A stretch of DNA of 64,000 nt from Candidatus Iainarchaeum sp. (GCA_043816965.1 JBDRHK010000015.1:3548-67547); one strand, 5' to 3'. Numbered from the stretch's first letter, positions 1-34,791 are shown. The notes: generated by a model from the sequence alone, not told the origin. Made by a program: numbers and translations.

Positions 1-282
1 CACGCAGTGCACATCAACAGTAACCCCGGTCGCAAAATCATACCTGAATGCCCTTGCACAGTAACCATATGCTCCTGTTAATGGGGGAGGGATTCCTCCA
101 CCGGCAGGTCTCGTATAAAAAGAAACCATTGCAGCATCAATTGCCTGCTGCCTTGTGCTTTTGGCGGCCTCAACATCTGCCTTTTCAACAAGGTAAAGGT
201 TTGCATAGGCGGCCGCAAGAATAACAACCACAGCTATTGCAAACATGGCGTCAACACTGAAAGCAAAACCTTTATCAGACAT
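1..282 (-). CDS. Pilin-like protein with class III (prepilin-type) signal peptide; C-terminus lies beyond the window edge
   Basis: Absent from the ORF track because there is no stop in the window. Hand translation from ATG (282-280): MSDKG/FAFSVDAMFAIAVVVILAAAYANLYLVEKA... This is a short charged leader, then Gly, then about 20 hydrophobic residues. The ATG overlaps the stop of ORF 275..916 (ATGTCTGA). Confidence 0.55.
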   Translation of the reverse strand, partial: MSDKGFAFSVDAMFAIAVVVILAAAYANLYLVEKADVEAAKSTRQQAIDAAMVSFYTRPAGGGIPPPLTGAYGYCARAFRYDFATGVTVDVHCV

Positions 283-916
283 TCTTCCACACCTTTAGCG
301 TTATTGTCCCCTGCTCCAAAGGGCAACCTAAACTGTCATTGTCCCTAATGCAATTATGGTATAACTCTTTTTTGAATATCCACTCCTCAAACCCTGGGCC
401 TTGTGTGCCATTAAGAAAAACAACATCCCTTGTCGATGAATACACATTGCTTGCGGACCCGTCAAAAATAGCTCCGCATTCATTTGCAGTCAGGTTTAAT
501 TCAGCAGTGATATTGCCAGAAACTGAACCATTTCCAGTAATATTGCAGGAATAGTCAGATGGAATCCCCAATTTTTCCTTTGTTATTTCTAATTCCGGGG
601 GAGGAGCCGTGAAAAGAGGAATGCAGCCCATCACAGGCGCAAGAGAGGTAAGCGTACCTGCAAAATCGCGTCCTGCCATTCTGCAGGAAAAATATTCATT
701 ATCTGTCGCAAGAAAGGAAGGCTTGCTCATAAGGATAAGTGTGGCGGTCTCCCCAACTGAATAAAGTTCGTTATTGATTTCCGCCTCCCTTTGGTTGTAT
801 TCCTGCAACTCCATAAACTGAAGCATCAGCCCAATTGCAAGAATTATGATTGTGAGGGAAAGGATAAAATCCAATGAAAAAATCTGGCCTTTTTTATTCA
901 ACATATCACCCAACAT
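275..916 (-). CDS. Pilin-like protein (class III signal peptide)
   Basis: N-terminus MLGDMLNKKG/QIFSLDFILSLTIIILAIGLML: basic leader, G/Q junction, acidic residue near +5/+6, hydrophobic helix. Overlaps neighbouring genes within the pilus operon. Confidence 0.6.
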   Translation of the reverse strand: MLGDMLNKKGQIFSLDFILSLTIIILAIGLMLQFMELQEYNQREAEINNELYSVGETATLILMSKPSFLATDNEYFSCRMAGRDFAGTLTSLAPVMGCIPLFTAPPPELEITKEKLGIPSDYSCNITGNGSVSGNITAELNLTANECGAIFDGSASNVYSSTRDVVFLNGTQGPGFEEWIFKKELYHNCIRDNDSLGCPLEQGTITLKVWKNV

Positions 917-1364
917 CCACCGTTTCTCCGCATTTTATTGGAAAGGTTCCATTAAGGGTCGTTGTCTCCCTTGTTACAGCAACAGCCAGTTCCTCCGGGG
1001 CATCACCATAAATATTTCCCGCATCATCAAAATCAAAATTCATTGTCAATTTGTTGCCGGCATAATTTATCTCACAATCCAATGCCCGTCTCTCGCCAAT
1101 AAGAATTAGTTTTGGCACCGAATACGTAATATCAACAGTACTGGTGATTTCTGCCCCTGTTCCCGCAGTAAAAGACTGCGAAAGCTCCTCATTCAAGGTG
1201 TAAATCCTTGCAACCTCGTTTAAAATTGCCCTTCCCTGGGAACGTATTGAAATCGCCTGCTGGCTTTCAGTGACATCATCCATTAAAATTGCCATTCCCT
1301 GCACAAAAAGCATTGCCACCAAAATGGTTAATGTCAAATCAATGCTTACCTGACCCCTCTGCAT
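906..1364 (-). CDS. Pilin-like protein (class III signal peptide)
   Basis: N-terminus MQRG/QVSIDLTLTILVAMLFVQG matches the [KR]G/Q-x-S-x-[DE] plus hydrophobic-helix pattern shared by the locus. Confidence 0.6.
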   Translation of the reverse strand: MQRGQVSIDLTLTILVAMLFVQGMAILMDDVTESQQAISIRSQGRAILNEVARIYTLNEELSQSFTAGTGAEITSTVDITYSVPKLILIGERRALDCEINYAGNKLTMNFDFDDAGNIYGDAPEELAVAVTRETTTLNGTFPIKCGETVDVG

Positions 1365-2582
1365 TCAATCACCATAAAGAATTGCTTTTCCCGCAATATT
1401 AATCAGCTCAGGAACAAGATCTCTTCCGTTAATCCTCTGCAATCCCCCTGATGCGCAGGCCCTCTCCCCAAATTCCTTTACAGCATCAACCCTGACCCCT
1501 GGGCCATTTATCAGGATAGGGAGAGGGTCGCCTGAATGTGCCTTAAGTGAGCAGGGAGTTGAATGGTCCCCTGTAACCGCAATCACCGTATTCTTAAGTC
1601 CCCTTAATTCACCAATCGCCAAATCATCCTTCTCAATAAACTTCATTTTGCCCCTGCAATTTCCATCCTCACCCAAAGAGTCAGTTCCCTTTACATGCAG
1701 GAAGATGAAATCGTATTTATTCAGGGCTTTTTTCGCCTCCCTGAACTTTGCCCCGGCATTTGTTGCAGGGGTACCTGTCGCCCCCTTAACATCTATCAAA
1801 TCCATTCCCAAAAATCTGGCAACTCCCCTGTAAAGTCCCCCGCCTGCAATGCACCCTGCCTTCAGCCCAAACTTTTTCTCAAAACTTTCCAGTTTCGGGA
1901 CAAATGCCGCGCCCCTTATGAGGACATAGTTTGGAATAAGTTTTCCGGATTTTTTCCTTTTTGCATTTTCAGGATTTTTGGAAACCACATCCCTAGCCTT
2001 AGCCAGGAAGTTGTTCATAACCTTTGCGGTAAATTTCGCCTGCCTTGTATTTTTGGTGGGCCTTACGGCAAGAACATTCTCCCCCGCAATATGGGGGTCA
2101 TTGTCGGCCACATCCCCCGATAATCCTTTTCCCCTTGCAATAATTCCCATGCGGTGCGCGGTGCCTGGCTGAACCATAAATTTAATCCCGTTAATTGCAA
2201 TCCCATCCAGTTTCTTTGCATAGGGGGAAGTGTCACCAATCCTCCCTGCTCTCCGGTCTATTATTTTCCCGCCTTTATCCACGGTCGCAAGGTTTGCCCT
2301 GAAACAAACATCTCCCTTTTTTGGGTTCATCCCAATTCCCAAAACCTCAAACAGGCCCCTCCCTGCATAATACTTTTCAGGAGGAAAGCCAAGAATTGAA
2401 AGATGTGCTGTGTCACTCCCAGGCCTTACTCCCCTTCCGATTGTGTCCATTAAGCCAGTGATTCCATTTTTTGCAAGTTTGTTAAGGTTTGGGGTTTTCG
2501 CTTTCTCCAAAGGAGTAAGGCCCCCGAATTCCTTAACCGGCCTATCCCCGAGACCATCCAGAATTACAAGTAAAATCTTCAT
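1365..2582 (-). CDS. apgM: 2,3-bisphosphoglycerate-independent phosphoglycerate mutase, archaeal type
   Basis: MKILLVILDGLGDRP..., GSDTAHLSILGF and TGDHSTP motifs, 405 aa, typical of archaeal ApgM (alkaline-phosphatase superfamily). Ends with TGA. Confidence 0.9.
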   Translation of the reverse strand: MKILLVILDGLGDRPVKEFGGLTPLEKAKTPNLNKLAKNGITGLMDTIGRGVRPGSDTAHLSILGFPPEKYYAGRGLFEVLGIGMNPKKGDVCFRANLATVDKGGKIIDRRAGRIGDTSPYAKKLDGIAINGIKFMVQPGTAHRMGIIARGKGLSGDVADNDPHIAGENVLAVRPTKNTRQAKFTAKVMNNFLAKARDVVSKNPENAKRKKSGKLIPNYVLIRGAAFVPKLESFEKKFGLKAGCIAGGGLYRGVARFLGMDLIDVKGATGTPATNAGAKFREAKKALNKYDFIFLHVKGTDSLGEDGNCRGKMKFIEKDDLAIGELRGLKNTVIAVTGDHSTPCSLKAHSGDPLPILINGPGVRVDAVKEFGERACASGGLQRINGRDLVPELINIAGKAILYGD

Positions 2583-2602
2583 CAGAACCGATATTAATTA
2601 AA

Positions 2603-2968
2603 TCAAACTACTATAAATTCTTGTTGCTTTCCCCCAGAATCAAATGCAGCGATGGATTCCAGGTCATATGGATATGCTGCAATAAGATGGAAATCCCCGA
2701 ATTTTGTAAAACTGCTTAAATCCGCCATTGAGGGATATGCATTGGGGGATGGGTGGGAATGGACACTCCCCATTACCCTGGAATCTATGGGGATAAGCCA
2801 GCTCTTTATTGCGGTGAAATTTCTTCCATAAGTTGCGGGAACCACGACCAATTCATCAATAATGCCATTTTTCTTATCCCCGCCAAGAAGGGAAAAGAAC
2901 TCGTTAGGATAGGTATTGTGAGAAGCAATAATTATTGATTCTATTGTTTCCTTTTTAATTCGGTACAT
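2603..2968 (-). CDS. JAMM/MPN+ metalloprotease domain protein
   Basis: NEFFSLLGG (Glu) and HSHPSPNAYPSMADL (HxHx7Sx2D JAMM motif). The track ORF extends to 3022, but MYRIKKE (ATG at 2968) is the more plausible start. Confidence 0.75.
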   Translation of the reverse strand: MYRIKKETIESIIIASHNTYPNEFFSLLGGDKKNGIIDELVVVPATYGRNFTAIKSWLIPIDSRVMGSVHSHPSPNAYPSMADLSSFTKFGDFHLIAAYPYDLESIAAFDSGGKQQEFIVV

Positions 2969-3015
2969 CGGAACCCCAAATAATAAGGGCAGAAAAATTA
3001 AAATACCGCAACAAA

Positions 3016-3354
3016 TCAGCAATTTTCCAATTGGGAAGGAATTCCGTTTGGGTATTCCTTGGCAGAGCAGACTTGGTTTTTAACATACCAACAGCAACCC
3101 ATAGCATAGCTGGCTCCAGCTGGGGCGAAATCACCTAAATCTGATGGATCAGCCTTACAGTTATTTTCATCGCCACCATATGTATTAATACATGATATTT
3201 TTGCGCCAGACAGCCGGCTAGGGGGATCGGGATTGATCGGAGGTAATATCGAAATTAGCACCACCGAAACAACAACTACGACAACCAATGTCATCAGAAC
3301 AGCCGCACCGACAATCAAAATCAACTTCTTATCCATGCAAACGAATAAGCCCAA
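3016..3354 (-). CDS. Cysteine-rich pilin-paralog lacking the prepilin cleavage motif (membrane-anchored)
   Basis: The C-terminal ~60 aa align with pilin 7861..8193: SC[IL]NTYGG...LGDFAPA..Y..GCCW....VCSAKEY........C, with six conserved Cys and a C-terminal Cys. The N-terminus MDKKLILIVGAAVLMTLVVVVVV has no G/Q-x-x-x-E site. Confidence 0.6.
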   Translation of the reverse strand: MGLFVCMDKKLILIVGAAVLMTLVVVVVVSVVLISILPPINPDPPSRLSGAKISCINTYGGDENNCKADPSDLGDFAPAGASYAMGCCWYVKNQVCSAKEYPNGIPSQLENC

Positions 3355-3377
3355 ACTACTATTTATTTATGCCTGAT

Positions 3378-4568
3378 TCAAATTCCCAGGTAAAAAACTA
3401 TCACCGGCACCATCAGGAACGCCATGCAATTTGTCCTTTTTGTCCCTGTGCAAATTGTGAGCAACCCAACAGCTGCTGAAACAACCAGCAAAAGAATTCC
3501 AACAACCCCGCTAAACCAATAGACCAAAAAGAAAAGTAAAATAATTATTATTTTGTTAATTAGGGAGTAATCGAATCTCGAAAGATTCTTTGCAACAATT
3601 ATTGCCATCACCTCAGCGGCGATTGCCCCCACCCCAATCGCAATCAAGATAACCGCAATGAAAATCAGCAGGGTATTCCAGTCCAGTTTAACCAATTCCT
3701 TGACCGCAACAGCTGCTCCTGTCCTTGTTTTCCCAAGCAGGAAAAGGATAAAGAAACTGAAAATTATATTGGTTGTATTAATCCCGCCCAGCATTACAAG
3801 ATAGCCCTTGCTGCTCATTTTCCCCTTTAGTTTCCCTGCCATGAATGCTGCCTGGCTTGCCCCGACCCCGGGCAGTATGGAAACAAAACCCCCGGCCAGT
3901 GTGCTAAGAAGGGAATATTTTAAGACAGGATTTAATGGATATGAATCCTTTTTCACCAATTGTTTCCTCAATCTTGTTTTCACCCTTAAGGAGTTGAGCA
4001 GCGTGGATAGGCCAAAAAAACCAGTAACCAACGGAAATATTGGATTGCCTATTGCAAGGAAGTTCAGTGAAATTAATCCAATTACTGAGGAAAGCGCTAC
4101 AATAGCAAAACTCCACAGGATTTTATTCTGTTTCTTCTGCCAGAAAACCATAAAGAGAAGAATCAGGATAAGGATGAACGGAACAAACTGGTAAATTATT
4201 TTTCCCCATTCCTCAATGAAGAGAAAGTAAACAGGGGAAATCAGCACCGCAACAACACCCCCAAAAACCCCGCCAATGATTGTGAATTTTATCGCCGAAA
4301 CCCCCTCCCCCTTAAGCAGTAATTTATGCCCGGGAAGAACCGAAAGAAAAGTGCTTTCTTCCCCTGCCCCCAAAAAAACACTTGGGATGAAATCAACAAA
4401 TGACTGCACTGTGCTCATTGCGACAATCATCACCGCAACACCCAGGCCAAATTCCCCGAAAAGGCTGACCGCAACAAGGGCAACAGTGTTTGCATGGATT
4501 CCTGGAACCAGGCCTGTGGCAACTCCAAAAAAACAACCTACAAAAATAAAAAACAGAATCTCAATCAA
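3378..4568 (-). CDS. Polytopic membrane protein, DUF112/TctA-like
   Basis: About 10 or more hydrophobic segments. N-terminal GLVPGIHANT and the later LPGVGASQAA resemble the duplicated TctA/DUF112 motif. Assigned from memory of the family only. Confidence 0.5.
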   Translation of the reverse strand: MIEILFFIFVGCFFGVATGLVPGIHANTVALVAVSLFGEFGLGVAVMIVAMSTVQSFVDFIPSVFLGAGEESTFLSVLPGHKLLLKGEGVSAIKFTIIGGVFGGVVAVLISPVYFLFIEEWGKIIYQFVPFILILILLFMVFWQKKQNKILWSFAIVALSSVIGLISLNFLAIGNPIFPLVTGFFGLSTLLNSLRVKTRLRKQLVKKDSYPLNPVLKYSLLSTLAGGFVSILPGVGASQAAFMAGKLKGKMSSKGYLVMLGGINTTNIIFSFFILFLLGKTRTGAAVAVKELVKLDWNTLLIFIAVILIAIGVGAIAAEVMAIIVAKNLSRFDYSLINKIIIILLFFLVYWFSGVVGILLLVVSAAVGLLTICTGTKRTNCMAFLMVPVIVFYLGI

Positions 4569-4923
4569 CGCTTTCCACTTCCTCGGCGATGATTTCCAGC
4601 TGCCCCTTATATTTCTTAACCACGCCCCTGATTCTCACAAATTCATTTTCCCTTACCCCCGCCAATTCCCTGACAGTTGGGGAGAAAACAACAACCCTCA
4701 AACCCCCTTCCCCCCCGAGTGAAAAGAACAATGTGTCATTTGCGAAAAACCTTTCCCCAACCTTTCCCTGGGAAATAACTCTTTTGTCTAGCCAGCTTTC
4801 ATCAATTTCCCCGGGGGAGATTTCCAATGGCTCCTCCATAAACGCCAGAAACAGGAGCAGGATAATTCCTGCAAGGGAAACCAGGAGAGAAATCTTTTTC
4901 ACCAGAAAATCATTGAATTCCAT
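4561..4923 (-). CDS. Membrane-anchored OB-fold protein
   Basis: N-terminal TM helix, then a ~70-aa beta-rich region ending FVRIRGVVKKYKGQLEIIAEEVE, typical of tRNA_anti-like OB folds. Confidence 0.45.
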   Translation of the reverse strand: MEFNDFLVKKISLLVSLAGIILLLFLAFMEEPLEISPGEIDESWLDKRVISQGKVGERFFANDTLFFSLGGEGGLRVVVFSPTVRELAGVRENEFVRIRGVVKKYKGQLEIIAEEVESVD

Positions 4924-4956
4924 AGCTTATTTGGAAAAGAAAAGAAGATAAATAAT

Positions 4957-4970
4957 TCGTCAATTGACGA
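4957..4970. promoter_or_regulatory. Perfect 14-bp palindrome TCGTCAATTGACGA abutting a TATA-like box upstream of gene 4561..4923
   Basis: Read directly. On the minus strand the order is palindrome, ttatttatc (4947-4955), then ATG at 4923 about 23 nt later. The same arrangement occurs at 34283 and 31935. Confidence 0.45.
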
Positions 4971-4973
4971 ATA

Positions 4974-5567
4974 TTAGATTTTCTCTATTTCGACAGGCCT
5001 GGGCCCCAAAAGGCCCCTTTTAAGCCTAAGCTTAACCCTTTCCCCTTTTTTGAATTTCAAGCCTGATTTTATATTGTGCTTTTTCGCAACAGTCCAGGAC
5101 CTAAGATCAAATTCTGTTTCCACAAGGCAGTTCTCCCCGTCACTCATAATAACCTTTCCAAAACCATAGTTTCTTCTGAAAACCACCCAGAAAATTGCCA
5201 TGAAAATAAATAGCAGAATAATAAGCGCAAAAAAGAAAAAGCTCTGGCCTGAAAATTCAGGGGCAAAAACCGGCCCAAGCCAGCTCAGTTGGGCAATAAT
5301 AATCAAACCGACAAAGAAGTAGAGGTATGCGAAAAAATCCTCCTTGAATTCCTCCCGCCCCTCTGTTGCAAGCTCATAAAGGAGAATAACAATCAGAATT
5401 AATTCCGCAATCAAAAATAATTCATAAGGAATCAAAAATTTGAGAAAAACCCCTGCAATAATAACAAGCAGCAGAATCTGCATCTTGTAAACAAGATATG
5501 TGCGGTGGCTGAAATTGCCGACATTTTTCTCCAGGAATTTTTCAATCAAGCCAATCAGCTCGGGCAA
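4974..5567 (-). CDS. Hypothetical membrane protein
   Basis: Four or five hydrophobic helices followed by a soluble basic C-terminal domain. No recognisable motif. Confidence 0.4.
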   Translation of the reverse strand: MPELIGLIEKFLEKNVGNFSHRTYLVYKMQILLLVIIAGVFLKFLIPYELFLIAELILIVILLYELATEGREEFKEDFFAYLYFFVGLIIIAQLSWLGPVFAPEFSGQSFFFFALIILLFIFMAIFWVVFRRNYGFGKVIMSDGENCLVETEFDLRSWTVAKKHNIKSGLKFKKGERVKLRLKRGLLGPRPVEIEKI

Positions 5568-5980
5568 TTAGTGCTAGAAGGAATATTGTCCCTATCTGTG
5601 CCGTTAATGCACACATGCACAGTCTCATATTTGCTCCTCAAAATAATCTCGTCCCGAAGATAATCTTTGAATGCGGTGGTGTCTAGGTTCATGCTGCCCC
5701 CGGAAAGAATTAAATCCAGCTTAATTGTGTCATCGCCTACAGTCTCAAAAAGTATTTCCTCAATGTACTCCATAGAATCAATCTGGCTCAGTTTGTCGAT
5801 TGTTTTTTCCTTTGCAATTATCAGCGCAATTGTTGAATCTTTTATGACCACGTAATTGGAAAGAATCATGGTAACCAAACCTATTACCGCCGCGAAAACG
5901 ATAATCAGCTCATAGCTGACCTGGCCGGAATTACTAAGCCAATTTGACAGTGGTTGTAGAACCATCTTTTTCAACCTCAA
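5555..5980 (-). CDS. Pilin-like protein (class III signal peptide)
   Basis: ...LSNSG/QVSYELIIVFAAVIGLVTMIL. Overlaps the upstream gene. Confidence 0.6.
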   Translation of the reverse strand: MRLKKMVLQPLSNWLSNSGQVSYELIIVFAAVIGLVTMILSNYVVIKDSTIALIIAKEKTIDKLSQIDSMEYIEEILFETVGDDTIKLDLILSGGSMNLDTTAFKDYLRDEIILRSKYETVHVCINGTDRDNIPSSTNCPS

Positions 5981-6488
5981 GAGTTACCACTATTCCGGCA
6001 TAATTATCCATATTGTCTATTTTTAATCCGCCTGAGCAGTTAACACTGCTACTATCTAATAATAAGTCAAACACCTTGGCACATTTTTCATTATCCCCAT
6101 CAATGTCATTAATGCAGGCAGACGGGGCCGAGTAAGCATTCAATAAAATCCCGTCCAGCGCAACCTGGAAGCAGATCCCATTCACGCAAGTTGCGCCAAT
6201 ATCGCTTAACTGGCAGGTTAGGATGGTGTTCCCAGGCACAAAAAGAGTAATGGTCCTTTTATTTTCCCCGGGAGCAACGCTCACAGCATCAATGGTATTT
6301 GCAAGCTTTTCCGCGGCAAATCTCGCCTGGCCAATCCTTGCGGTTTCCTTGCCGCTTGCGGCGGCAATTGTAAGCGAAGGGTTAACGACAGTCTGAATGA
6401 ACAGGGCAATAATCATCACAAGCATAATTATTTCAATAGAGGCCTGACCCCGCCTGCCTAAATTTTGAAAAAAGGAAATAGAACCCAT
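5934..6488 (-). CDS. Pilin-like protein (class III signal peptide)
   Basis: ...NLGRRG/QASIEIIMLVMIIALFIQ. The start overlaps the end of the peptidase gene. Confidence 0.6.
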   Translation of the reverse strand: MGSISFFQNLGRRGQASIEIIMLVMIIALFIQTVVNPSLTIAAASGKETARIGQARFAAEKLANTIDAVSVAPGENKRTITLFVPGNTILTCQLSDIGATCVNGICFQVALDGILLNAYSAPSACINDIDGDNEKCAKVFDLLLDSSSVNCSGGLKIDNMDNYAGIVVTLEVEKDGSTTTVKLA

Positions 6489-7669
6489 AAAACATCCCCT
6501 ATCAATTGAAGCAACAAATAACCAATCAATATTCCTGGCACAAATGCTGTTGTTCCCTTCACCTCTATCTTTTTCGGAATTAAGCCCTTATTCGCAAGTT
6601 CCTTAATCTCTTTTAATTGCTCCCCTGTAAGGCCGCCGGCGCTTGAGGAACTTGCAACAACCCTTGCCCCTGGCTTAATCGCCTGGTTAAGGGCATCCAA
6701 ATTATTATCCATTAACTGCTTTATAAGTGTTCCTATAGAGGCCCCTTCCAGAATCTCTATTTTTCCGCCCTTTTCAACAATGGTTTTTAGCGGAATCTCC
6801 CCCTCCTCCAGGTCCCTGACATCTTTCTCCATTCCCAAAAGCCTTGCCAATGCCTTTTTTGGCCTGTGGTGCACAACAATTTCAATTGTGAGAGTAATGG
6901 TGAGAATGATAACAAAAACTACGGCAAAACTAAATATTGCGCTTGGCACAGAAAGGTAGAGCGCGAAGGCCAACAGAATGGCCGCAAGGAATTTCTGCAG
7001 GAGATAGCTTATTTTTTTAAGCCCAAGCAAGCCAATCACTGTAACAATTGGCAGATGGAATATTTCAGGAACTCCCAGGAAAATAAGAAGGGTTGCTGTC
7101 CCAACAATCGCCGCAGTTGTTATAACAATGCCGTTAATTTTTCTTTTCACCAATGCAACAACAACCCCCTTCAAATTCATTTTCTTTATCATTTCCCTTC
7201 TATCAATCATGCGCTTTAATGTTATTGCAGTCACCCATGGGACCATTGAAATAATGCTGAAAACGAAAAGCGAAAAAGGGAAGATTGGCTCTGAAACAGA
7301 CGCAAAATTAAAAGTAATGCCGAGAAGTGAAAGGCTTTCTAAACCAATTAAATCCCTGAGGACACCATGGTTTACTGTGTTGATTGTGGCAAGCCCTGTC
7401 ATCAGCTTAACATCGCCCCCCGCCCATCCCCCTGCCTTGTAAAGGAGCAATGAGCCAACGGCGGTGGCGAAGGTTACGGCGCCGGTTACAATGATTATTG
7501 AAGGGTCATTCGCAAGCAGGGACCTGATTCCCTGCAGAATCAGCCCGCCAAAAATAAGTGAAAATGTGAGTTTATTGGAAACAATCCTTTCCCGTAAATC
7601 GGTAAATGTGGCGATAATAAGGGCGATTATTGAAATTATGAAGAAGAAAATAGGAAAGCTGATAGGCAT
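6458..7669 (-). CDS. A24-family prepilin/preflagellin peptidase (FlaK/PibD/EppA-like) with an extra ~105-aa soluble domain
   Basis: Two catalytic Asp contexts: TFTD(24)LRERIVSN and GGWAGGD(86)VKLM (GxGDxK). Multiple TM helices. A soluble segment at aa ~267-373 precedes the last TM helix. Confidence 0.8.
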   Translation of the reverse strand: MPISFPIFFFIISIIALIIATFTDLRERIVSNKLTFSLIFGGLILQGIRSLLANDPSIIIVTGAVTFATAVGSLLLYKAGGWAGGDVKLMTGLATINTVNHGVLRDLIGLESLSLLGITFNFASVSEPIFPFSLFVFSIISMVPWVTAITLKRMIDRREMIKKMNLKGVVVALVKRKINGIVITTAAIVGTATLLIFLGVPEIFHLPIVTVIGLLGLKKISYLLQKFLAAILLAFALYLSVPSAIFSFAVVFVIILTITLTIEIVVHHRPKKALARLLGMEKDVRDLEEGEIPLKTIVEKGGKIEILEGASIGTLIKQLMDNNLDALNQAIKPGARVVASSSSAGGLTGEQLKEIKELANKGLIPKKIEVKGTTAFVPGILIGYLLLQLIGDVLWVLFPFFKI

Positions 7670-7673
7670 GTTA

Positions 7674-7844
7674 TCAGCCCATCAGAGATTCAATAGTTTC
7701 CGACCTGAATGAAAGAATTTTTGCCTGCGCAACATTCGCAATCGAAGCCAAGTTCATGGTTACAACCGAAGCTACCAAAACCAGCACCAGCACAAAGCCG
7801 ATGCTGATAAGGTACTCCAATGAAACTTGTGCCCTATTGTTCAT
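7674..7844 (-). CDS. Small (56 aa) pilin with class III signal peptide, not in the ORF track
   Basis: Hand translation: MNNRA/QVSLEYLISIGFVLVLVLVASVVTMNLASIANVAQAKILSFRSETIESLMG*. 171 nt including the stop. Confidence 0.65.
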   Translation of the reverse strand: MNNRAQVSLEYLISIGFVLVLVLVASVVTMNLASIANVAQAKILSFRSETIESLMG

Positions 7845-7860
7845 GCTTTACACATCATTC

Positions 7861-8193
7861 TTAGCAATCTGTAAGTGCGGGAAGTGGTGTAGCATATTCT
7901 TTTGCAGAACAAACCTTATCTATAGTGTCCCAACAGCAACCAGCAGCGTAGTCTGCATTAGCAGGTGCGAAATCACCCAAAGCTTTGTCTGTTGCGTCAC
8001 CCAAACAGCCAGTGCCGCCTACAGCTCCCATAGTACCGCCATAAGTATTCAAACAGCTTACTTTCGCAGCACTAATTCTTGCCGGTTTGTCGTCACTTAT
8101 GGTTGTCAGCAATACTATAACCACCACAGCAACAAGCACAGCACCGCCAATCAGCAGCAGATACTCAAGTGCACCTTGTCCTTTTCTATCCAT
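7861..8193 (-). CDS. Candidate major pilin, cysteine-rich C-terminal domain
   Basis: MDRKG/QGALEYLLLIGGAVLVAVVVIVLL, with six Cys in the C-terminal domain. A near-perfect Shine-Dalgarno (minus-strand AAGGAGGATGA; tcctcc at 8201-8206) lies 7 nt before the ATG, with TATA-like boxes upstream. Confidence 0.75.
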   Translation of the reverse strand: MDRKGQGALEYLLLIGGAVLVAVVVIVLLTTISDDKPARISAAKVSCLNTYGGTMGAVGGTGCLGDATDKALGDFAPANADYAAGCCWDTIDKVCSAKEYATPLPALTDC

Positions 8194-8278
8194 ATGTTCA
8201 TCCTCCTTTTGTTGGTTATAAATATGATATAATCTATCTAAACATATCCATTCTAGTATTTAAACCTTCTTCCGGCAT

Positions 8279-8443
8279 TTATCCAGTACTTTCCTCAAGC
8301 GCTTCGCCTGAAGTATCCTGGAGCTCCCGGCCAAGTGTTTTTAGATAAAAACCAACTGCCGCTGCAACTGCCAGAACCCCCCCTAAAATAAGGAGCATTT
8401 CAAGCGAACTTTGCGCCCTTTCCTCAAAAATCAATCCTTTCAT
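8279..8443 (-). CDS. Small (54 aa) pilin-like protein with class III signal peptide, not in the ORF track
   Basis: Hand translation: MKGLIFEERA/QSSLEMLLILGGVLAVAAAVGFYLKTLGRELQDTSGEALEESTG*. The ATG overlaps the stop of 8440..9414. Confidence 0.6.
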   Translation of the reverse strand: MKGLIFEERAQSSLEMLLILGGVLAVAAAVGFYLKTLGRELQDTSGEALEESTG

Positions 8444-9414
8444 GAAATACCACCCATTATTGACCTTGAACCAAACAATACAACTGTAAAGCAGATGTAT
8501 GCCACTAATAAGAGGAGTGGGAAGTATATAATACTTTTGCTCATCTTTCCATCTCTCATAAGTGAAATCATTATGCTTGCCGCAAGGGTTTCTATAAGAA
8601 CATATATCTGGATAAGCAGGGTTATGTCCTCCCTTGCCTTATCAGCAGCTTTGATTGCGGCATCATCTGCAACACCCTGGGCCGCAAGTATTAGGAAGCT
8701 TACAACAGTTGAAATAAAACCAAAGATTGCGGGAGCAACCAATGAGCCTGCAGTTACTAAGAAGATTACCTGCAGGCCTGTTTTTGACCTTCTTTCCTTG
8801 TTTATTCTATGTGTGGATCTGACATCTTCCGCAATCTGCTCAAGGATATCTGCCAATCCAGCACCTGCCTTGACAGAGTCAACAATTATTGTGACAGTTC
8901 TCTGTATAAGCCTTGAATCAATCTTGGAAAGAACTTTCAGCGAATTCTCGAAGTTTTCCCCCTCCTCAAGCTTCCTCAGGACATAGCCCATCTCCATTTT
9001 CAGTGCCCCATATTCGGATGCGGCAACTTCCCTCAGGGCATATTCATATGTTCCCCCGGCCCTCAATGTGTCGGCCATCTGCCTCAGCGCATCAGGCAGG
9101 GTTTCCTCAATTTCATCAATCCTTTTAAGTGCGTTCAGCAGGGGAAAGCCGATTGTAAGGTCAATGGCAACTATAAAAACTACTAATGGCAGGCCAGCCA
9201 GAACGCTCGTAAGAGAATCCATTTCAAGATAGTTTATCAGGGCATCAGAACCTGCCCAGGAACCGACAACAAGAAAAATCGACAAAAAAATGGAAAACAA
9301 AATCCAAAGGAAAGGGTCAAACCTGAATCCGCTCCATGCAAGCATTTTTGAGTAATATTTCAAAAAGCCTATGCTGTTCAGGACAGGAATCCTTTCCATC
9401 AGTCTCAATGCCAT
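8440..9414 (-). CDS. Type II secretion system F-domain membrane protein (TadC/FlaJ-like)
   Basis: T2SSF-like cytoplasmic helical domain (LPDALRQMADTLRAGGTYEYALREVA...AGAGLADILEQIAEDV) flanked by TM helices. Confidence 0.75.
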   Translation of the reverse strand: MALRLMERIPVLNSIGFLKYYSKMLAWSGFRFDPFLWILFSIFLSIFLVVGSWAGSDALINYLEMDSLTSVLAGLPLVVFIVAIDLTIGFPLLNALKRIDEIEETLPDALRQMADTLRAGGTYEYALREVAASEYGALKMEMGYVLRKLEEGENFENSLKVLSKIDSRLIQRTVTIIVDSVKAGAGLADILEQIAEDVRSTHRINKERRSKTGLQVIFLVTAGSLVAPAIFGFISTVVSFLILAAQGVADDAAIKAADKAREDITLLIQIYVLIETLAASIMISLMRDGKMSKSIIYFPLLLLVAYICFTVVLFGSRSIMGGIS

Positions 9415-9418
9415 AACA

Positions 9419-10570
9419 TCACACCGTCGGTTGCGCTATTTTTAGGTAATAAACAAGTAAAATCATTATCCCTGGCATAAGCACCAGGTAGAATATTCCC
9501 ATCATTGTGGGGTTAAGCCCAAGGCCGCCAACATTCGGCAGTGGGGAGTTTGTTATTCCCCCAATAACGGCAACAAACACAGGAATAACAATTGCCATAA
9601 AGATAAATATCACCCCGAAGAAATTCATCTTCTCCCCGAAATCCCTCATCGCAATCCTGAGCTCAAAAGAAACATCCTCGGCAATCTTGTTCATTATGTC
9701 CGAGAGGTTTCCCCCTGTCTTAAGCGCACGTATTATGTGGAGCAATGCGCTTCTTAAGGATTTGGATTCTGTCCTCAGTGCAAAGTGCCTTAGGGCAACT
9801 TTAGTGTCTGTTCCCTCCTCAACCTCGGAAATGGTCCTTGAAAATTCCTCTGAAAGGACGCCATAATCAGAAACAGCGATTGCCTGCAGTGTTTTGTAAA
9901 GCCCTATTCCTGCCTTTAATTCTGTTGACATATGCCTGAGGGCAAAGGGAAGCTCAACACTGATTTCCTTACCCCTCTTCATTGCCTTACTTTTTGGGTT
10001 GAGGAAGCAGATAATGGCTGCAAATAGGAACACAAAAATTGCAATAATCGGCGAAAGCAGCAAAATTAAGTTGTTGTCAAGGAACCAGCCAAGTCCTGCA
10101 AACAAAAGCAGCACAAAGAATGCAGCAATCACTGAAACAGAGGTTGAAATCGCAAGATATTGCTGGATGCTGTATTTCATGTTTGCGCTGTAAAGGTAAT
10201 AGCCTAACTCCCCCGCCCCCGGCATTCTTCTCAGAATCTTTGAAATGAACTTTAAGGGAAGCTCAAACAAAAGATAAACCCTGCCCAAGCTCCTGATTGT
10301 GGGGGAACTGAATTCAGTTAAATCCTCAATTCCCTGCACCCTTATTTTTGACAGCTGGCTTTCGGCAATTATTCCCCGCAGTTCGCTTAATCTGCCGCCA
10401 ACTTCCTCAAATTCAACTCCCTGATCCCGATATTTTTTTTTCATCCTGGTTACAATCTTGTCCACCGCATCAAGGTCGATTGATTCCTCATCCTTTTCAA
10501 TCGCGCCGAACTTTTTGGCCGTTTTCTTTTTTTCTTCAACCTGTTTTCTCAGATCATCAAGTTCAGGCAT
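9419..10570 (-). CDS. Type II secretion system F-domain membrane protein (TadB/FlaJ-like)
   Basis: [26 protein letters not shown]...[16 protein letters not shown] plus TM helices. Paired with 8440..9414 like TadB/TadC. Confidence 0.75.
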
Positions 10571-13500
10571 ATTCTCCCCTCTTCTTTAGCAGGTGGTCCT
10601 GGCAGGCTTTTGATACCTCTTCTATAGACCTTATCTTCTTGTCAACAAGGCTCTTAAGAAACCTTTCCCTGTCCTTAAGTTCGGCATCAATCTGCTTTTT
10701 TGACAGTCCGGTGTATTTTTCAAGTGTCCTGAGGTATGCGCTGGAGAAATTGGACCGAATGAGTTGATCAGTTATTGCATCCCTTTCGAAAAGGGTTTGG
10801 GTTGTTGATTTGCCCTCCAAGACCCCGCCAACCTCCGCCATCTCGGTAATTCTTCTAATGGTGCCTTTTTTCCTGTCATGAAGCCTGTGTTCTATAAGCA
10901 CGAAATCAAGCCCTGAAAGCATCATCTTAGGGACATTCATCGGAGGGCTTGTGACCCTTACTAGTGCCTCTTGGGGAGAGTTTGCGTGGACAGTCCCCAT
11001 GCAATTTGAAACAAACAAGCCATTGGCAATGTAATTGTGGTTATCTTTAACAGTCAGGTCGTAAACATATCCCTCGAATTCCCGGTCCTTCACTTCAACT
11101 ATTTCCTCGAACCTGAAATCAGATTCAACTAATTTTAAAAGTTCCTTTCCAATGGAATTTTCGGAAGTTATCATTGCAATTTTTTCCAGTTGCCCTCTCG
11201 ACGGATTTCTTTGGTTAGTTTCGTATGCCTCAATCGTTGACCTTGTTTTTGCATTCATAAAAGATGCCAATTCTGTTTGCGTTAAGTAACAATCGCTCCT
11301 CGCCCTTTTGATTAAACCGGAAATTTTCGGGAACAAATCCATCGAATTTTTTGAAACTTTCAATAGTCCTGCTAGTTTTTGCCTTTTTGCAGAATGCCTG
11401 AAGCCGATTTTCCCCTGGTATTTTTCAAGGTTATCCTTACCATAAATTGAAATTCTGTAGTAAGGGCCAATATTTCCTTTGCCGTCTTTTTCCTGAATAT
11501 TTGTTGAGGAGTGAATCCCGAATCTCTGGAGAATCATCGGAAGTTTTTTTGCCAGGTCGGGGTTTGATGTTGAGAATTGGATTGAGTTTGAATGCAGATT
11601 CACATGGGCCTCAGCATCGAAAAACCCGCATAATAATTCCCCGATATTTGACTCACTTGAACTTAAAGCCTTTTTCGTTATTTTGAATTTTTTTGTTTTA
11701 TTCCCTAGAGGAATATCATACTCCTCTTCAAAAAGTTTAACCAATTTTTTGTCAAAAACATTTACTCTGGAATAGTTTCCATAGTTTTTGACCGATACCT
11801 TGTTTTTGGTGGTTTTTCCAATCCCGTCCGCAAAATTTTCAATGACTGATTTTTCGTTGTTCACAAACTGAATCCCTTCGCTGTGAATGTGCCCATCTCC
11901 ATAAATCAATCCTGCCAAGTAGGGATGTTTTATTTTTTCCGTGGCACTAATCGTGATTGCCTTTGGAAATGCAATGAAATCCCCCCCCTTTGCCTCTTCA
12001 GAATTTATTTCCTGAATGCCATTATGTATCCTGTAAATCGGATGGTCTTTTGTCAAACAAATGCGTTTTCCTGAGCGGGTTTTTATTATTTTCATCATTT
12101 CTTTTGTTTTCTTCTTCCAGACCCGCGTAATTGGCCTGTTTTCAATTTTCAATGTCTTTTTGTTAAAGCTTGGGACAAGCAGTTCTTCACTTAATTCAAC
12201 AAATTTAAATTCTCCGTCGCTTATTGGACATGTTTCATTAAATTGCCTTTCAACAAAATCCCCAATTGCCTCAATATTCCCGTCTGAAAACTGAATTAAT
12301 GTTTCTCCATTTAATGCGCCTTCATGGCCGGTATTCATGGCGGTAAAAAGCGAGAATGCCTCATCATGCCTTATCTCACCAACTATAATTCTGTCAGGCC
12401 TCATCCTGAGGGAATTTTTAGTCAAAATATCCATTGTTATTTCCCCAGTTCCCTCCATTCCCGGGGGCCTTGATTCAAGCCTTATCCAGTGTTTTAAGGG
12501 AAGGTTCAGTTCTGCAGTGTCCTCAATTGAAACAATCCTTTCAGAAGCAGGAATAAATGAGGCAAGAACATTCAAAGTTGTTGTTTTCCCTGAACCGGTT
12601 CCTCCCGCAATCAGAATGTTTGCGGGCTTTACCCTCAATCCCTCAACACAAAGCCAGAGGAATGCAGCGGTTTCAAGGTTTACTGTATTGAGGTTCAGCA
12701 AATCAACTATTGACAACGGGTCTTCCCTGAATTTCCTTATAGTGAGGGTTGCACCACTTACAGATATGGGGGGGATGGTCGCATTAACCCTGCTCCCATC
12801 AGGGAGTCTTGCATCCAGCAAGGGGGCGGAAATATCAACCCTTCTTCCCACCTGCCTTCCTATCCTGTTTACGAGGTCCTCTATCTCGGACTCGGAAAAG
12901 AATTCAATATTGGTTTTCATCATTTCATATTCCCTGTGGAAAACATAAACCGGGCGTTTTGCGCCAATAACCATAATTTCCTCAAGCCTGTCATCCTTTA
13001 TCAGGGAATCAATAAGCCCATATCCGACCATCTCCCTCACAACAGCATCTGCATAAAACTCAAATCTTCTAGTTGGAATCCTTAACTCTTTCGAGGTCTG
13101 CAGGATTTCCATTATTTTCTGCTGGTAAACACTTCTCCTCTCTTCAGGGTCACGGATTTTGTAGGGGATTATGCTGATTATTCTTGTTGCAGCTTCCTTT
13201 ATTGTGTTGATTATTGTTTTATCCCCCTTCGTCGGCCTTGGCACAGGGGTATAGTAGTACATCAGGGGTTGGCCAGGAATTTCATATATTGTCGTATTTC
13301 CGTAAGATGCAACCTTAATTTTCTTTACATTTTCCATCTCCTTTTCGATTGTTGATTTATCCGGTTCTTCCTCTCCTTCTTTGGCGGGAATTCCCTCCAC
13401 CGAGGCAGGCCCCTTAGGCACTTCAGGGGATTTTCTCCTCTCAAAAATGTTCATAATCCCCTCCTTCCTGCTCTCAATTTCAGGAGTCTCCTCTTTTACC

Positions 13501-13682
13501 GGGGCAGCCACTGGCTCTTGGCGGGCCAAAAATTCATCTGCAGAAGGACCATTGGCTATAGGTTGCGAAGTTGCAGGGCCAGTTTCTATAGTAGACCCCT
13601 CTACCTTAATCCCCTTTTTTTCCTTTGCCTTTCTAATCAGATCATCCAAAGGGTTAGACATATATATCCCATTAATCAACAA
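10563..13682 (-). CDS. Type IV pilus/secretion ATPase (VirB11/FlaI/KlbA family) interrupted by an intein
   Basis: Walker [33 protein letters not shown]. The conserved AMNTGHEG...CMGTVHANS box is split by 438 aa. The extein alone would be ~601 aa with a low-complexity acidic N-terminal extension. Confidence 0.9.
11004..12317 (-). mobile_element. Intein (438 aa) with LAGLIDADG homing endonuclease and HTH insert; Ala1 ... Ser-Asn / Cys+1
   Basis: Boundaries by hand: GHEG|[10 protein letters not shown]... and ...[13 protein letters not shown]|CMGTVHAN. Block [18 protein letters not shown] motifs [13 protein letters not shown] and [13 protein letters not shown]. Visibly more AT-rich than the flanking extein. 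Confidence 0.85.
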
Positions 13683-13827
13683 CGTTTCTTTTATTTAATG
13701 GTTTTGGCACGGCTATTTCCCTCCGGGAACTTGCACCCTTCCGGGCACAAGCGAGCTCCGTGCACACGGCGGCTCCCTACGGGGAACCTTGTTCGCTGCG
13801 TTCGCCAATTTGAATTATAAAATCAGC

Positions 13828-33361: not shown

Positions 33362-33686
33362 GGCCCTATTTTCCCTCTTTCTGCTTTGCTCAGTCCTGCT
33401 GCTCCCAGCCTCCTTTTCCAGCCCATCCTATTCCGAGGTGCTGCTTGTGCAGAAGGGGAATGACCTATTGGCGGTATGGATGATGCAGCGCTCATTTTCG
33501 CAGAGGGAAATCCTTTCTGACATCCAATTGGTTTTTCCCATGCATGCTGTTCTTGTTGAAATTGACGGAAGTGAATACTGGCACAATAAAAGAAATTTTG
33601 CGGGAATGGACGCAACGTCCTCATCAATATTTTTTCTTGATGATTCCCTCCAGCTGAAAGAATTAAGGCTCACCATTTACCACTGA
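33342..33686 (+). CDS. Pilin-like small protein (short leader)
   Basis: MMHLSTEALFSLFLLCSVLLL. Confidence 0.4.
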   Translation: MMHLSTEALFSLFLLCSVLLLPASFSSPSYSEVLLVQKGNDLLAVWMMQRSFSQREILSDIQLVFPMHAVLVEIDGSEYWHNKRNFAGMDATSSSIFFLDDSLQLKELRLTIYH

Positions 33687-34076
33687 AACTTTCCCGGAAT
33701 TTTTTTCCAGTTTCAGCCTGATTTCATTTTCGGCCCTGAAAGGTAAAAGGGAAAAATTTGCATTCACTTCCCTCTCGAGTTTCTTCCCTCTCCCAAGTTC
33801 TGAACTTTCAACTATCAGGATTAATTTCATGTTCTCGTTTTTGAGTTCCCATTGATTTATCACGTTAGAGGAAATTTGGAGGGAACTTCCATCACCAAGG
33901 ACATTCATCCTCTCTATCCCCAATTTTAAATCATCAATAAAGTGCTCGGCATTCCTCACATCCAGGCCAAACTTGGCGGCCTGGACAGTATTGTTTATCG
34001 CAGGAACAAGGAAAAGCAGGCAGGAAAAGAATGCGGCCAGAAGTATGATATATTCCAGGCTTAGTTGTCCGCGCAT
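33663..34076 (-). CDS. Pilin-like protein (class III signal peptide)
   Basis: MRG/QLSLEYIILLAAFFSCLLFLV. Confidence 0.6.
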   Translation of the reverse strand: MRGQLSLEYIILLAAFFSCLLFLVPAINNTVQAAKFGLDVRNAEHFIDDLKLGIERMNVLGDGSSLQISSNVINQWELKNENMKLILIVESSELGRGKKLEREVNANFSLLPFRAENEIRLKLEKNSGKVSVVNGEP

Positions 34077-34247
34077 TCAGATATCCTCAATCTGCTCGAA
34101 TATTTCGCTTGTTTTGTTGTCGATTACCTTTGCCCCCTCCTCGGTTGTTTTCTGGAGCTGGCTTACGAGAAGCAAAACTATCGCAACAACCGCGGCAAGG
34201 ACAATAATCATTTCCACAGAAATCTGCGCTTTTTCCTCATAAAACAT
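34077..34247 (-). CDS. Small (56 aa) pilin with class III signal peptide, not in the ORF track
   Basis: Hand translation: MFYEEKA/QISVEMIIVLAAVVAIVLLLVSQLQKTTEEGAKVIDNKTSEIFEQIEDI*. The stop abuts the ATG of 33663..34076. Confidence 0.6.
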   Translation of the reverse strand: MFYEEKAQISVEMIIVLAAVVAIVLLLVSQLQKTTEEGAKVIDNKTSEIFEQIEDI

Positions 34248-34316: not shown

Positions 34317-34345
34317 TGCCTAGGGTTTCGGAAGGCATAAATACC
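34317..34345 (+). promoter_or_regulatory. Promoter copy 1: tgcctagggtttcggaaggcataaatacc
   Basis: 26/29 identical to 34763-34791. The TATA-like ataaata lies ~25 nt before ATG 34368. Confidence 0.5.
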
Positions 34346-34367
34346 AGTTTGGGCTTATTTGTGAGTT

Positions 34368-34762: not shown

Positions 34763-34791
34763 TGCCCAGGGTTTCGGAAGTAATAAATACC
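34763..34791 (+). promoter_or_regulatory. Promoter copy 2: tgcccagggtttcggaagtaataaatacc
   Basis: See copy 1. The TATA-like box lies ~23 nt before ATG 34812. Confidence 0.5.

Follow-up and report, generated by a model that had tools for sequence, protein, structure and literature searches.

We find that a small cysteine-rich domain is encoded twice at this archaeal locus, once as the head of a prepilin (P0001) and once on a protein that most likely stays in the membrane by means of an uncleaved signal anchor (P0002). With moderate confidence, we read the pair as one six-Cys surface module carried on two N-terminal scaffolds, pilin and anchor, with exchange between them. The window, by which we mean the whole 64,000-nucleotide stretch analysed, comes from a Diapherotrites/Iainarchaeia MAG (Candidatus Iainarchaeum sp.) and encodes an Epd-like type IV pilus operon, recognized by Pfam and NCBIfam profiles and a motif scan. 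The two genes and their parts are as follows (a slash marks the cleavage site):

7861..8193, minus strand: prepilin gene P0001, 110 aa (ORF; PF04021, E=8e-8)
8179..8193, minus strand: predicted class III signal peptide of P0001, MDRKG/QGALEY (PF04021)
~8098..8178, minus strand: hydrophobic H-domain of P0001, followed by a short linker
7864..8082, minus strand: six-Cys head of P0001 (stop codon 7861..7863)
7864..8103, minus strand: replaceable head cassette of the pilin gene, between the near-invariant 5' segment (codons 1-30) and the next pilin gene
3016..3336, minus strand: anchored paralogue P0002, 106 aa (ORF; alignment to homologues; syntenic orthologue P0003 in the related MAG locus L002)
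3244..3324, minus strand: 27-residue hydrophobic segment of P0002, after MDKK
3220..3243, minus strand: Pro-rich linker of P0002, PPINPDPP
3019..3219, minus strand: six-Cys domain of P0002 (stop codon 3016..3018)
3097..3240, minus strand: mosaic core of P0002, from the linker to the CCW motif (no alignment to the syntenic orthologue; closest to pilin-head alleles)
3341..3370, minus strand: promoter-like element of the anchored gene, TATA-like ATAAATAAATA then AGTTTGGGCTTATTCGT, ending 4 nt before the ATG

P0001 has the make-up of a canonical EppA-type prepilin, in agreement with the leader recognized by the original prediction. Its match to PF04021 (Class_IIIsignal) scores 32.4 bits, above the gathering score of 23.7, and a GGAGG lies 9 nt upstream of its ATG. 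EppA substrates carry Gly, Ala or Ser at -1, Gln at +1, Glu at +5 and a charged residue at -2, with the site placed before the H-domain (PMC4371748). P0001 conforms to this class III rule (MDR-K-G/QGALEY, ahead of the H-domain), and its mature N-terminus would read Q-G-A-L-E, with both the +1 Gln and the +5 Glu present. An NCBI MAG protein of identical sequence bears the annotation 'class III signal peptide-containing protein', and the closest N-terminal relatives of P0001 are headless UPF0333 pilins of 51-67 aa.

P0002 begins differently. The mechanical ORF 3016..3354 opens on a TTG. Translation almost certainly begins instead at the ATG at 3336, giving 106 aa that begin MDKKLILIVG...: this codon is aligned with the start codons of the two homologues, and a conserved TATA-like element precedes it by ~30 nt. 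Each of the three anchored genes, in the window, L002 and L001, has the promoter-like element in front of it, whereas the pilin gene has none; from its archaeal TATA position, the element would act as a promoter, and P0002 is apparently expressed. No Pfam or NCBIfam model matched P0002, which has neither +1 Gln nor +5 Glu and no class III site, as had been claimed. P0002, P0003 and a further anchored protein, P0005, all fail the class III rule through a Lys or Glu directly before the H-domain, and PF04021 finds none of them even at E<=1. In P0002, MDKK is followed by 27 hydrophobic residues; the segment length (27-28) is kept in P0003 and P0005, and no small-x-small motif is conserved after it in the three members. 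We read the KK and 27-residue segment as a probable signal anchor that would keep the protein in the membrane, a topology and lack of cleavage read from the sequence and not from a trained predictor.

The relationship between the two proteins, which the original prediction had drawn from a shared C-terminal domain, holds under pairwise alignment: P0001 and P0002 match over their full length (BLASTP, E=4e-26, 45% identity), their ~65-aa domains alone are 58% identical, and their six Cys align. Searching the window by tblastn with either domain gave E~1e-18 and no third copy. The six Cys, including a CC pair and a C-terminal Cys, are invariant in five of five full-length family members. The domain also lies outside described families, as had been suspected, and is very rare: it has no match in Pfam or NCBIfam profile searches, the top hit of a profile search against the PDB had E=1.6, and Foldseek of an AF2 model against the PDB returned nothing at E<=0.001, the models being of low confidence (pLDDT 64 and 54). 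Only six relatives were found among ~15 billion proteins, and the domain seems confined to a small number of Iainarchaeia (Diapherotrites, DPANN) genomes. The family sample comprises six sequences, of which two lie on ~0.5-kb contigs, and their unrooted tree would fit either scaffold as the first to carry the module. We regard the domain as an extracellular, probably disulfide-stabilised surface module; disulfides are plausible because all Cys-bearing pilin-like ectodomains in the window have even Cys counts and the relative's MAG encodes two membrane-anchored DsbA-like CxxC proteins.

P0001 lies within a cluster whose further genes are listed here, together with two pilin-like genes downstream:

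10563..13682, minus strand: pilus assembly ATPase, T2SSE family (Pfam), split by an intein
~11004..12319, minus strand: LAGLIDADG/HTH intein inside the ATPase (Pfam)
9419..10570, minus strand: platform-protein gene, T2SSF family (PF00482, E=5e-20)
8440..9414, minus strand: platform-protein gene, T2SSF family (PF00482, E=1e-15)
8279..8443, minus strand: short headless pilin, 54 aa, ...ER-A/QSSLEM (PF04021, E=4e-6)
7674..7844, minus strand: short headless pilin, 56 aa, MNNR-A/QVSLEY (PF04021, E=6e-4, under the cutoff)
6458..7669, minus strand: large EppA-like prepilin peptidase, 403 aa (PF01478 Peptidase_A24, E=5e-11; PF06819 Arc_PepC, E=2e-8)
5934..6488, minus strand: pilin-like protein, 184 aa, RR-G/QASIEI, 6 Cys (motif scan)
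5555..5980, minus strand: pilin-like protein, 141 aa, 2 Cys (motif scan)
906..1364, minus strand: downstream pilin-like protein, MQR-G/QVSIDL, 2 Cys (motif alone, no Pfam match)
275..916, minus strand: downstream pilin-like protein, KK-G/QIFSLDF, 6 Cys (motif alone, no Pfam match)

With a T2SSE ATPase, two T2SSF proteins, a Peptidase_A24 plus Arc_PepC peptidase and at least five +1-Gln pilin-like genes, this cluster has the composition of archaeal TFF system 1 (Epd-like). [quoted passage not shown] The peptidase is presumed to process the +1-Gln prepilins of the locus; its best NCBIfam match is PrePilPeptEppA, far below the equivalog cutoff (NF053826, 47.3 bits vs 450), and we call it EppA-like by size, domain content and substrate motif only. 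Compared with L002, the two platform proteins are 88-90% identical in amino acids, the headless pilins 98% (8279..8443) and 96% (7674..7844, which occurs in locus L041 too), and the pilin-like proteins at 5934..6488 and 5555..5980 are 75% identical to their orthologues. The L002 ATPase orthologue has no intein segment.

The pilin heads are replaced between loci. The L002 pilin has a 30-aa N-terminus identical to that of P0001 and an unrelated head; at the nucleotide level, the flanks of the gene are 85-94% identical between the window and L002, whereas the head gives no alignment. Against L041, the flanks are 95-100% identical and the head 76%. Across 36 metagenome loci, one invariant N-terminus, GQGALEYLLLIGGAVLV, bears many unrelated small Cys-rich heads, which differ across strains and in tandem gene pairs, and hhalign found one common metagenome head family to be unrelated to the six-Cys head. 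These comparisons show the pilin heads of the clade as swappable cassettes recombined between near-invariant flanks. Such Cys-rich heads are common in this archaeal group, though the six-Cys domain itself is very rare.

The anchored gene has a history of its own. P0003 occupies the syntenic position in L002, and P0005, at another locus of that MAG, is its second anchored copy; the neighbourhood of P0005 is without pilus machinery genes, save for a peptidase A24 gene ~6 kb off. The pilin of this MAG, by contrast, carries an unrelated head. The 5' end of P0002 (the anchor) and its tail are 81-84% identical to P0003 in nucleotides, and a blastn alignment of the window with L002 stops at 3240 and restarts at 3096. 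Between these points, the P0002 core is 74% identical to the pilin head of P0006, 64% to P0001 and 53% to P0003, and is thus nearer to another strain's pilin head than to that of its own genome, whereas the tail is 81% identical to P0003 and 52-56% to pilin heads. Informative sites divide accordingly (pilin-head vs P0003, 16:4 in the core and 3:10 in the tail; Fisher p=0.003). The alignments thus show P0002 as a mosaic, its anchor and tail orthologous to P0003 and its core of the pilin-head type, and, because of this composition, they indicate that the anchored and pilin scaffolds have exchanged a module. Between the heads of P0001 and P0002, synonymous sites have reached saturation (dS~1.9), and the exchange is therefore old or came from an unsampled allele. 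The gene is under purifying selection, with a dN/dS of ~0.3 and all six Cys kept. Neither the interchangeable heads nor the recombinant core of P0002 had figured in the original prediction.

We envisage the module at work as follows. The P0001 precursor would be inserted via its H-domain, cut after Gly5 (KG/QGALEY) by the adjacent EppA-like peptidase, and polymerised by the upstream-encoded ATPase and two platform proteins, so that the module may be displayed along or on the pilus. P0002 would be transcribed from its own promoter and display the module at the cell surface on a Pro-rich stalk behind its presumably uncleaved KK and 27-residue signal anchor, N-in/C-out. The role is most likely adhesion to, or recognition of, surfaces or partner/host cells, the pilus acting at long range and the anchored copy in close contact, although this is a generic reading from pilus biology.

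Other explanations must be weighed against this one. The original prediction derived the anchored gene from a duplicated pilin that lost its G-QGALEY segment by a small in-frame deletion and now serves as an anchor, decoy or regulator of the pilus. BLASTP does draw a single 6-residue gap at exactly the cleavage segment, MD[RK]K is common to both proteins, and P0002 and P0003 follow the pilus operon on its own strand, 4.5 kb further downstream; the N-terminal similarity is, however, marginal when hydrophobic composition is controlled, exceeding TM-only shuffles only weakly (z=1.8-2.5, p=0.02-0.06). The reading of this gap as a deletion fares poorly: the anchored N-terminus is kept in three genes, the genome that holds two of these has a pilin without this head, and the anchor and tail of P0002 are orthologous to those of P0003. 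The N-terminal coding regions have no DNA-level similarity, despite an almost invariant pilin N-terminus, and the blindness of PF04021 to every anchored member, the different and itself conserved promoter element and the position of P0005 away from pilus machinery genes all speak against it. We consider a small deletion unlikely; the anchored protein emerges from these comparisons as an independent conserved gene family and not a recently decapitated pilin, one whose origin may still have been a pilin in the distant past. That the similarity reflects chance between short Cys-containing ORFs, or that the ORFs are non-coding, is a reading that could appeal only to small size and family rarity, and we reject it as next to impossible in view of the BLASTP E-value, orthologues with dN/dS<1 in other assemblies and the presence of both proteins in the NCBI MAG annotation; on this evidence, P0001 and P0002 are real paralogues.

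It is quite improbable that P0002 mainly stores sequence to be transferred by gene conversion to the expressed pilin, producing antigenic variation in the manner of pilE/pilS. Sequence has indeed moved between P0001-type and P0002 genes, the pilin head lies between near-invariant segments suited to homologous recombination, and close strains differ sharply in the head, as the comparison with L041 shows. P0002, however, is a complete gene and a single potential donor without an array, and it shares no long identical tracts with P0001 (64% in the core); the mosaic points to the anchored gene as a recipient of conversion at least as much as a donor, and most metagenome head diversity consists of unrelated domains that P0002 could not donate. 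Just as doubtful is a P0002 that is not anchored at all, from which signal peptidase I would free a ~65-aa soluble Cys-rich peptide, for instance a toxin, a signal or a bacteriocin-like factor, with the fold reused independently in the pilin. Secreted peptides are typically small and may well have six Cys, an 'SGA/K' motif follows the P0002 linker, and there is a faint NCBIfam match to a TOMM bacteriocin family (E=0.046). This match is noise (13.5 bits vs a cutoff of 33), and it falls on the pilin copy; moreover, the hydrophobic segment of all three members far exceeds a cleavable h-region in length, there is no conserved small-x-small motif close to where it ends, and none of the adjacent genes is of a bacteriocin-type processing or export kind. 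The preferred reading thus remains a shared six-Cys module on pilin and anchor scaffolds.

Among known systems, the Epd pili of Methanococcus maripaludis (system 1) have the same locus logic as the window, in which several pilins accompany an ATPase, two platform genes and a large prepilin peptidase dedicated to them, and the same processing motif, [KR][GA]/Q with +5 Glu (PMC4371748 for the rules and the Epd table). The main Epd pilin is without a globular head, whereas P0001 adds the ~65-aa six-Cys module, and the peptidase of the window stands well apart from the EppA equivalog in score (47 vs 450 bits). We know of no Epd system with a non-pilin paralogue carrying the pilin head. In haloarchaea, several pilins share an almost identical H-domain and differ in their C-terminal parts (2013 work, in PMC4371748), the same pattern of constant H-domain and variable C-terminal part as in the clade of the window. 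Those pilins, however, are PibD substrates within one genome, and their heads are not small Cys-rich modules. To our knowledge, no exchange of haloarchaeal pilin heads with a signal-anchored paralogue has been described.

In the pilE/pilS system of Neisseria, too, the N-terminal region of the pilin is conserved and its head variable, and the pilS copies are silent, promoterless and numerous. The P0002 mosaic resembles this system in the transfer of sequence between a pilin gene and another locus that bears head sequence but no pilin N-terminus. Unlike pilS, P0002 is not a silent donor but, as far as its sequence tells, a single complete gene under selection and apparently expressed, with its own ATG, anchor and conserved TATA-like element. 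In the bindosome of Sulfolobus, one extracellular domain type occurs, in different proteins, behind a class III (pilin-like) signal or behind other membrane anchors. Bindosome proteins are named as PibD substrates (PMC4371748). They are large solute-binding proteins of known function, whereas the module described here is a 65-aa Cys-rich domain, with both versions in one genome.

The two minus-strand reading frames that the original prediction had paired, a prepilin and a protein without a prepilin cleavage site, are real, and they carry a common C-terminal domain of ~65 aa with six cysteines:

7861..8193, minus strand: P0001, pilin ORF of 110 aa, beginning MDRKGQGALEYLLLIGG
3016..3354, minus strand: P0002, ORF with a plausible start at the ATG at 3336, giving 106 aa beginning MDKKLILIVGAAVLM

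The predicted paralogy holds: the proteins match at E=4e-26 (BLASTP), their C-terminal domains are 58% identical, and all six cysteines align, including a CC pair and the C-terminal Cys, and are invariant in every full-length member that we found. Within the window, the two domains cross-match at E~1e-18 (tblastn), and neither domain, used as query, finds a third copy. P0001 has the canonical leader, matching PF04021 (Class III signal peptide) above the gathering score; P0002 has no match in Pfam or NCBIfam.

The domain also lies outside any known family, as had been suspected: HMM searches give no match in Pfam or NCBIfam, PDB sequence searches give none either, and a scan of viral contigs returned no viral relatives. 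With the domain profile as query, a word-indexed search across 5.8 billion clusters recovered only the two window proteins; P0003 and P0005, each of 107 aa, came out of an exhaustive HMMER scan that covered 1.84 billion representatives. A eukaryotic repeat protein from the same scan (P0004) matched a short GCC..VCSAK motif five times and was rejected as spurious. Searching with a four-protein profile added P0006, a 106-aa pilin form, and also P0007, an ORF on a 529-bp ENA contig (L042). P0007 opens with a pilin N-terminus, goes on into the first part of a six-Cys-like head (P0003/P0005 subtype), and turns into glycosyltransferase-like sequence at the CCW position; it is probably a chimeric short-read assembly but, if genuine, would add a third allele type to the pilin-borne heads.

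The window is a chromosome fragment from a MAG annotated as Candidatus Diapherotrites archaeon and otherwise carries ordinary archaeal housekeeping genes (e.g., ThrRS, RFC, topoisomerase, CDC48, and Nre). The P0001 gene belongs to a type IV filament operon whose genes all run in one direction:

Genes of the type IV filament operon, in operon order
10563..13682, minus strand: T2SSE pilus assembly ATPase, split by a LAGLIDADG homing-endonuclease/HTH intein
9419..10570, minus strand: first T2SSF platform gene
8440..9414, minus strand: second T2SSF platform gene
between the second T2SSF gene and P0001, minus strand: pilin of 54 aa
7861..8193, minus strand: pilin P0001, 110 aa
after P0001, minus strand: pilin of 56 aa
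after the 56-aa pilin, minus strand: prepilin peptidase of 403 aa (Peptidase_A24 and Arc_PepC; best NCBIfam match EppA)
last in the operon, after the peptidase, minus strand: two larger pilin-like proteins

The intein spans 11004..12319 (minus strand), and the orthologous ATPase (592 aa) of L002, a syntenic locus in a related Iainarchaeum MAG, is without it. All pilin substrates of the operon carry [KR][GA]/Q (slash, cleavage position), which is the EppA rule of G, A, or S at -1 and Gln at +1, often with Glu at +5 (PMC4371748). Archaeal TFF 'system 1' (Epd-like) is defined by two platform genes together with a dedicated peptidase; it is reported from methanogens and DPANN, and its main pilin has no globular head (bioRxiv 10.64898/2026.04.22.720090). 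Downstream of the operon lie genes for a DUF2101 protein, an OB-fold protein, and a TctA-family membrane protein, then P0002, and beyond it a JAB protein, phosphoglycerate mutase, and two more pilin-like genes. Class III signal proteins are also encoded in another small cluster (33663..34229, minus strand), apart from this operon and divergent from an ORF at 34368: a 137-aa protein beginning MRGQLSLEY and a ~70-aa protein with the segment EEK-A/QISVEM.

Pilin heads in this group behave as cassettes. The syntenic pilin of L002 is identical to P0001 over its first 30 residues and then continues into an unrelated 6-Cys head; the DNA alignment between window and L002 ends at window position 8104 and restarts at 7844. 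We considered this L002 head as a diverged form of the six-Cys domain and rejected the idea, as there is no BLASTP alignment at E<=100. In L041, a 522-bp contig from another sample (SAMN08473120), the flanks are 95-100% identical to the window, and the six-Cys head reaches only 76% nucleotide and ~70% amino-acid identity. The first 35 pilin codons (window 8089..8193 versus L041 26..130) show zero synonymous differences, the head has a pS of 0.45, and the adjacent short-pilin gene is 95% identical in nucleotides; the synonymous-free 5' end suggests either recent homogenisation or nucleotide-level constraint. The excess divergence affects dN and dS alike, which favours replacement of alleles over rapid point substitution, and there is no evidence of positive selection (dN/dS about 0.2-0.35).

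The same architecture recurs widely. Scanning metagenomes for DNA that encodes GQGALEYLLLIGGAVLV gave 36 loci (L005-L040) from many environments, almost all of which place the same N-terminus on differing small Cys-rich heads, usually with 4-6 Cys; a few of the proteins are 385-581 aa long, and the genes often stand in tandem pairs (L011, L019, L021, L023, and L028). These pilins are a clade-wide family with an invariant stem and variable heads. The possibility that the six-Cys domain is a diverged member of the common metagenomic C-C-CC-C-C head family was rejected at an hhalign probability of 0.2%. A query of the N-terminal 40 aa, in a search that did not return the query's own cluster, found its nearest other relatives mostly among headless pilins of 51-67 aa. 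Together with the head swaps, this argues that P0001 is an Epd-type pilin stem to which an exchangeable head has been added.

The anchored protein belongs to a small family of its own. Its type of N-terminus recurs in P0003 and P0005 (MNKKVILIVGAAVLV and MKKEFFILKSF, respectively), both from one MAG, Candidatus Iainarchaeum archaeon AB_3033_Bin_152. L002 is syntenic with window 14241..2589 at 82-88% nucleotide identity and carries P0003 in exactly the position of P0002, between TctA and JAB; P0005 lies elsewhere in that MAG, between RadA- and RPA-like genes. As predicted, P0002 has no cleavage site; the anchored members all lack a small residue at -1 and a Gln at +1, and PF04021 fails to detect any of them even with a limit of E<=1. 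In each protein, two or three charged residues precede a hydrophobic stretch of 27-28 residues, and from these sequence features the N-terminus may act as an uncleaved N-in/C-out signal anchor. P0002 and P0003 differ with a dN/dS of ~0.3, which indicates that the protein is under purifying selection.

Upstream of P0002, P0003, and P0005 there is a TATA-like box, then AGTTTGGRCTTATTYGT, 4-5 nt, and ATG. This shared element supports the ATG at 3336 as the start codon of P0002 and supports a promoter of the anchored gene's own. The archaeal TATA box usually stands at -26/-27, from which the anchored-gene transcript would be nearly leaderless. A promoter-like cassette (GGTTTCGGAAGnnATAAATACC, then AGTTTGGGCTTATTTGT) is also present at 34324..34362 (plus strand), upstream of an ORF for a 103-aa small membrane protein (34368..34679) unrelated to the six-Cys genes. 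It contains the 17-mer found upstream of all three anchored genes (3341..3370, minus strand, in the window), and its upstream half occurs again at 34770..34791 (plus strand), where 0.01 chance matches are expected; the cassette may represent a site for a common regulator or a promoter that was duplicated. Upstream of the P0005 promoter element, a GC-rich, structured-looking segment (9860..9970 of L001, the contig of P0005) has no Rfam match at E<=0.1.

Sequence has passed between the two scaffolds. Neighbouring genes are 75-98% identical in amino acids between window and L002, whereas P0002 and P0003 are only 44% identical, with most of the divergence in the middle of the gene. In blastn against L002, the anchor-coding 5' end of P0002 (to 3241) and its last 81 nt (from 3096) align, and the core at 3240..3097 gives no alignment. 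This core is 74% identical in nucleotides to the pilin head of P0006 and 64% to that of P0001, but only 53% to P0003; past CCW, the tail shares 81% with P0003 and 52-56% with the pilin heads. Informative amino-acid sites group P0002 with the pilin heads at 16:4 in the core and 3:10 in the tail (Fisher p=0.003). P0002 is therefore a recombinant in which an orthologous anchor and tail enclose a core of the pilin-head type. P0001 and P0002 are saturated at synonymous sites, so the exchange is either old or took place with an unsampled allele. Among 44 pilin heads in all fetched loci, with power limited by short contigs, only the six-Cys module also occurs on a non-class-III scaffold.

A tempting account of the anchored form, put forward originally, is a decapitated pilin in which the G-QGALEY segment was deleted and the cleavage site lost with it. 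The resemblance of the two N-termini is marginal when hydrophobic composition is allowed for (z=1.8-2.5), the N-terminal coding DNA of P0001 and P0002 fails to align, the promoters of the pilin and anchored genes differ, and the anchored N-terminus is older than both the L002-lineage split and the P0003/P0005 duplication. We correct this account as unsupported. A tree of the module, with five taxa and unrooted, is not one from which the order of scaffolds can be read. Two further readings are unlikely: that P0002 is a pilS-like donor cassette, for which the recombinant core speaks and against which the promoter-like element and purifying selection do, and that it is a secreted peptide, against which the length of the hydrophobic stretch speaks. 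An artefact is very improbable, given purifying selection and the syntenic P0003.

AF2 models built from a 5-sequence alignment reach a pLDDT of 64 for P0001 and 54 for P0002, and Foldseek against the PDB returned only noise; the P0001 model shows a long helix at the N-terminus and then a beta-hairpin, which is no more than suggestive. Every Cys-bearing pilin-like ectodomain of the window has an even number of cysteines:

Cysteine counts
275..916: 6
906..1364: 2
5555..5980: 2
5934..6488: 6
7861..8193: 6
3016..3336: 6

The two short headless pilins of the window have none. L001 encodes two membrane-anchored DsbA-like CxxC proteins and three glutaredoxin-like proteins (1746..3300, 3449..3916, and 7173..7409), a set that bears on extracytoplasmic disulfide formation in these archaea. 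Given the even counts and the DsbA-like proteins of the related MAG, disulfide bonding in the six-Cys domain is plausible.

In the model that we propose, P0001 would insert into the membrane via its H-domain, the neighbouring EppA-like peptidase would cleave it behind Gly5, and the ATPase and platform proteins would polymerise it, so that the module is shown on the pilus. P0002, expressed from its own promoter, would present this module at the membrane, raised on a Pro-rich stalk. Pilin heads are swapped between strains by recombination within conserved flanking segments, and recombination has also carried sequence from one to the other of the pilin and anchored genes. From pilus biology and the diversification pattern, we infer that the module may serve in adhesion or recognition. 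That the matched pair is a self- or kin-recognition 'lock and key' made from one domain, the pilus head binding the same module on a cell surface, strikes us as a long shot; the bound copy would then belong to a kin cell or, during docking or retraction, to the pilus-bearing cell itself, and recombination between the genes would preserve compatibility as the module diverges from strain to strain.

DPANN archaea are regarded as dependent on cell-to-cell contact, and to our knowledge their surface appendages are almost unstudied. As this locus shows, the group's Epd-type pilins swap small cysteine-rich heads as cassettes on an invariant N-terminus, and at least one head is common to a separately expressed membrane-anchored protein with which it has recombined. 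This provides a testable handle on how cells vary long-range (pilus) and short-range (membrane) presentation, and a newly defined ~65-aa domain as an object for structural work. The practical impact is modest, the family being tiny, its members uncharacterised, and variable pilin heads already familiar. What is new is (i) an undescribed, extremely rare six-Cys module, (ii) its use both as a pilin head and on a signal-anchored paralogue, and (iii) evidence of recombination between these two. Both the pilus system and the combination of a conserved stem with a variable head already have precedents in Epd pili, PilA1-6 of Haloferax, and pilE/pilS of Neisseria.
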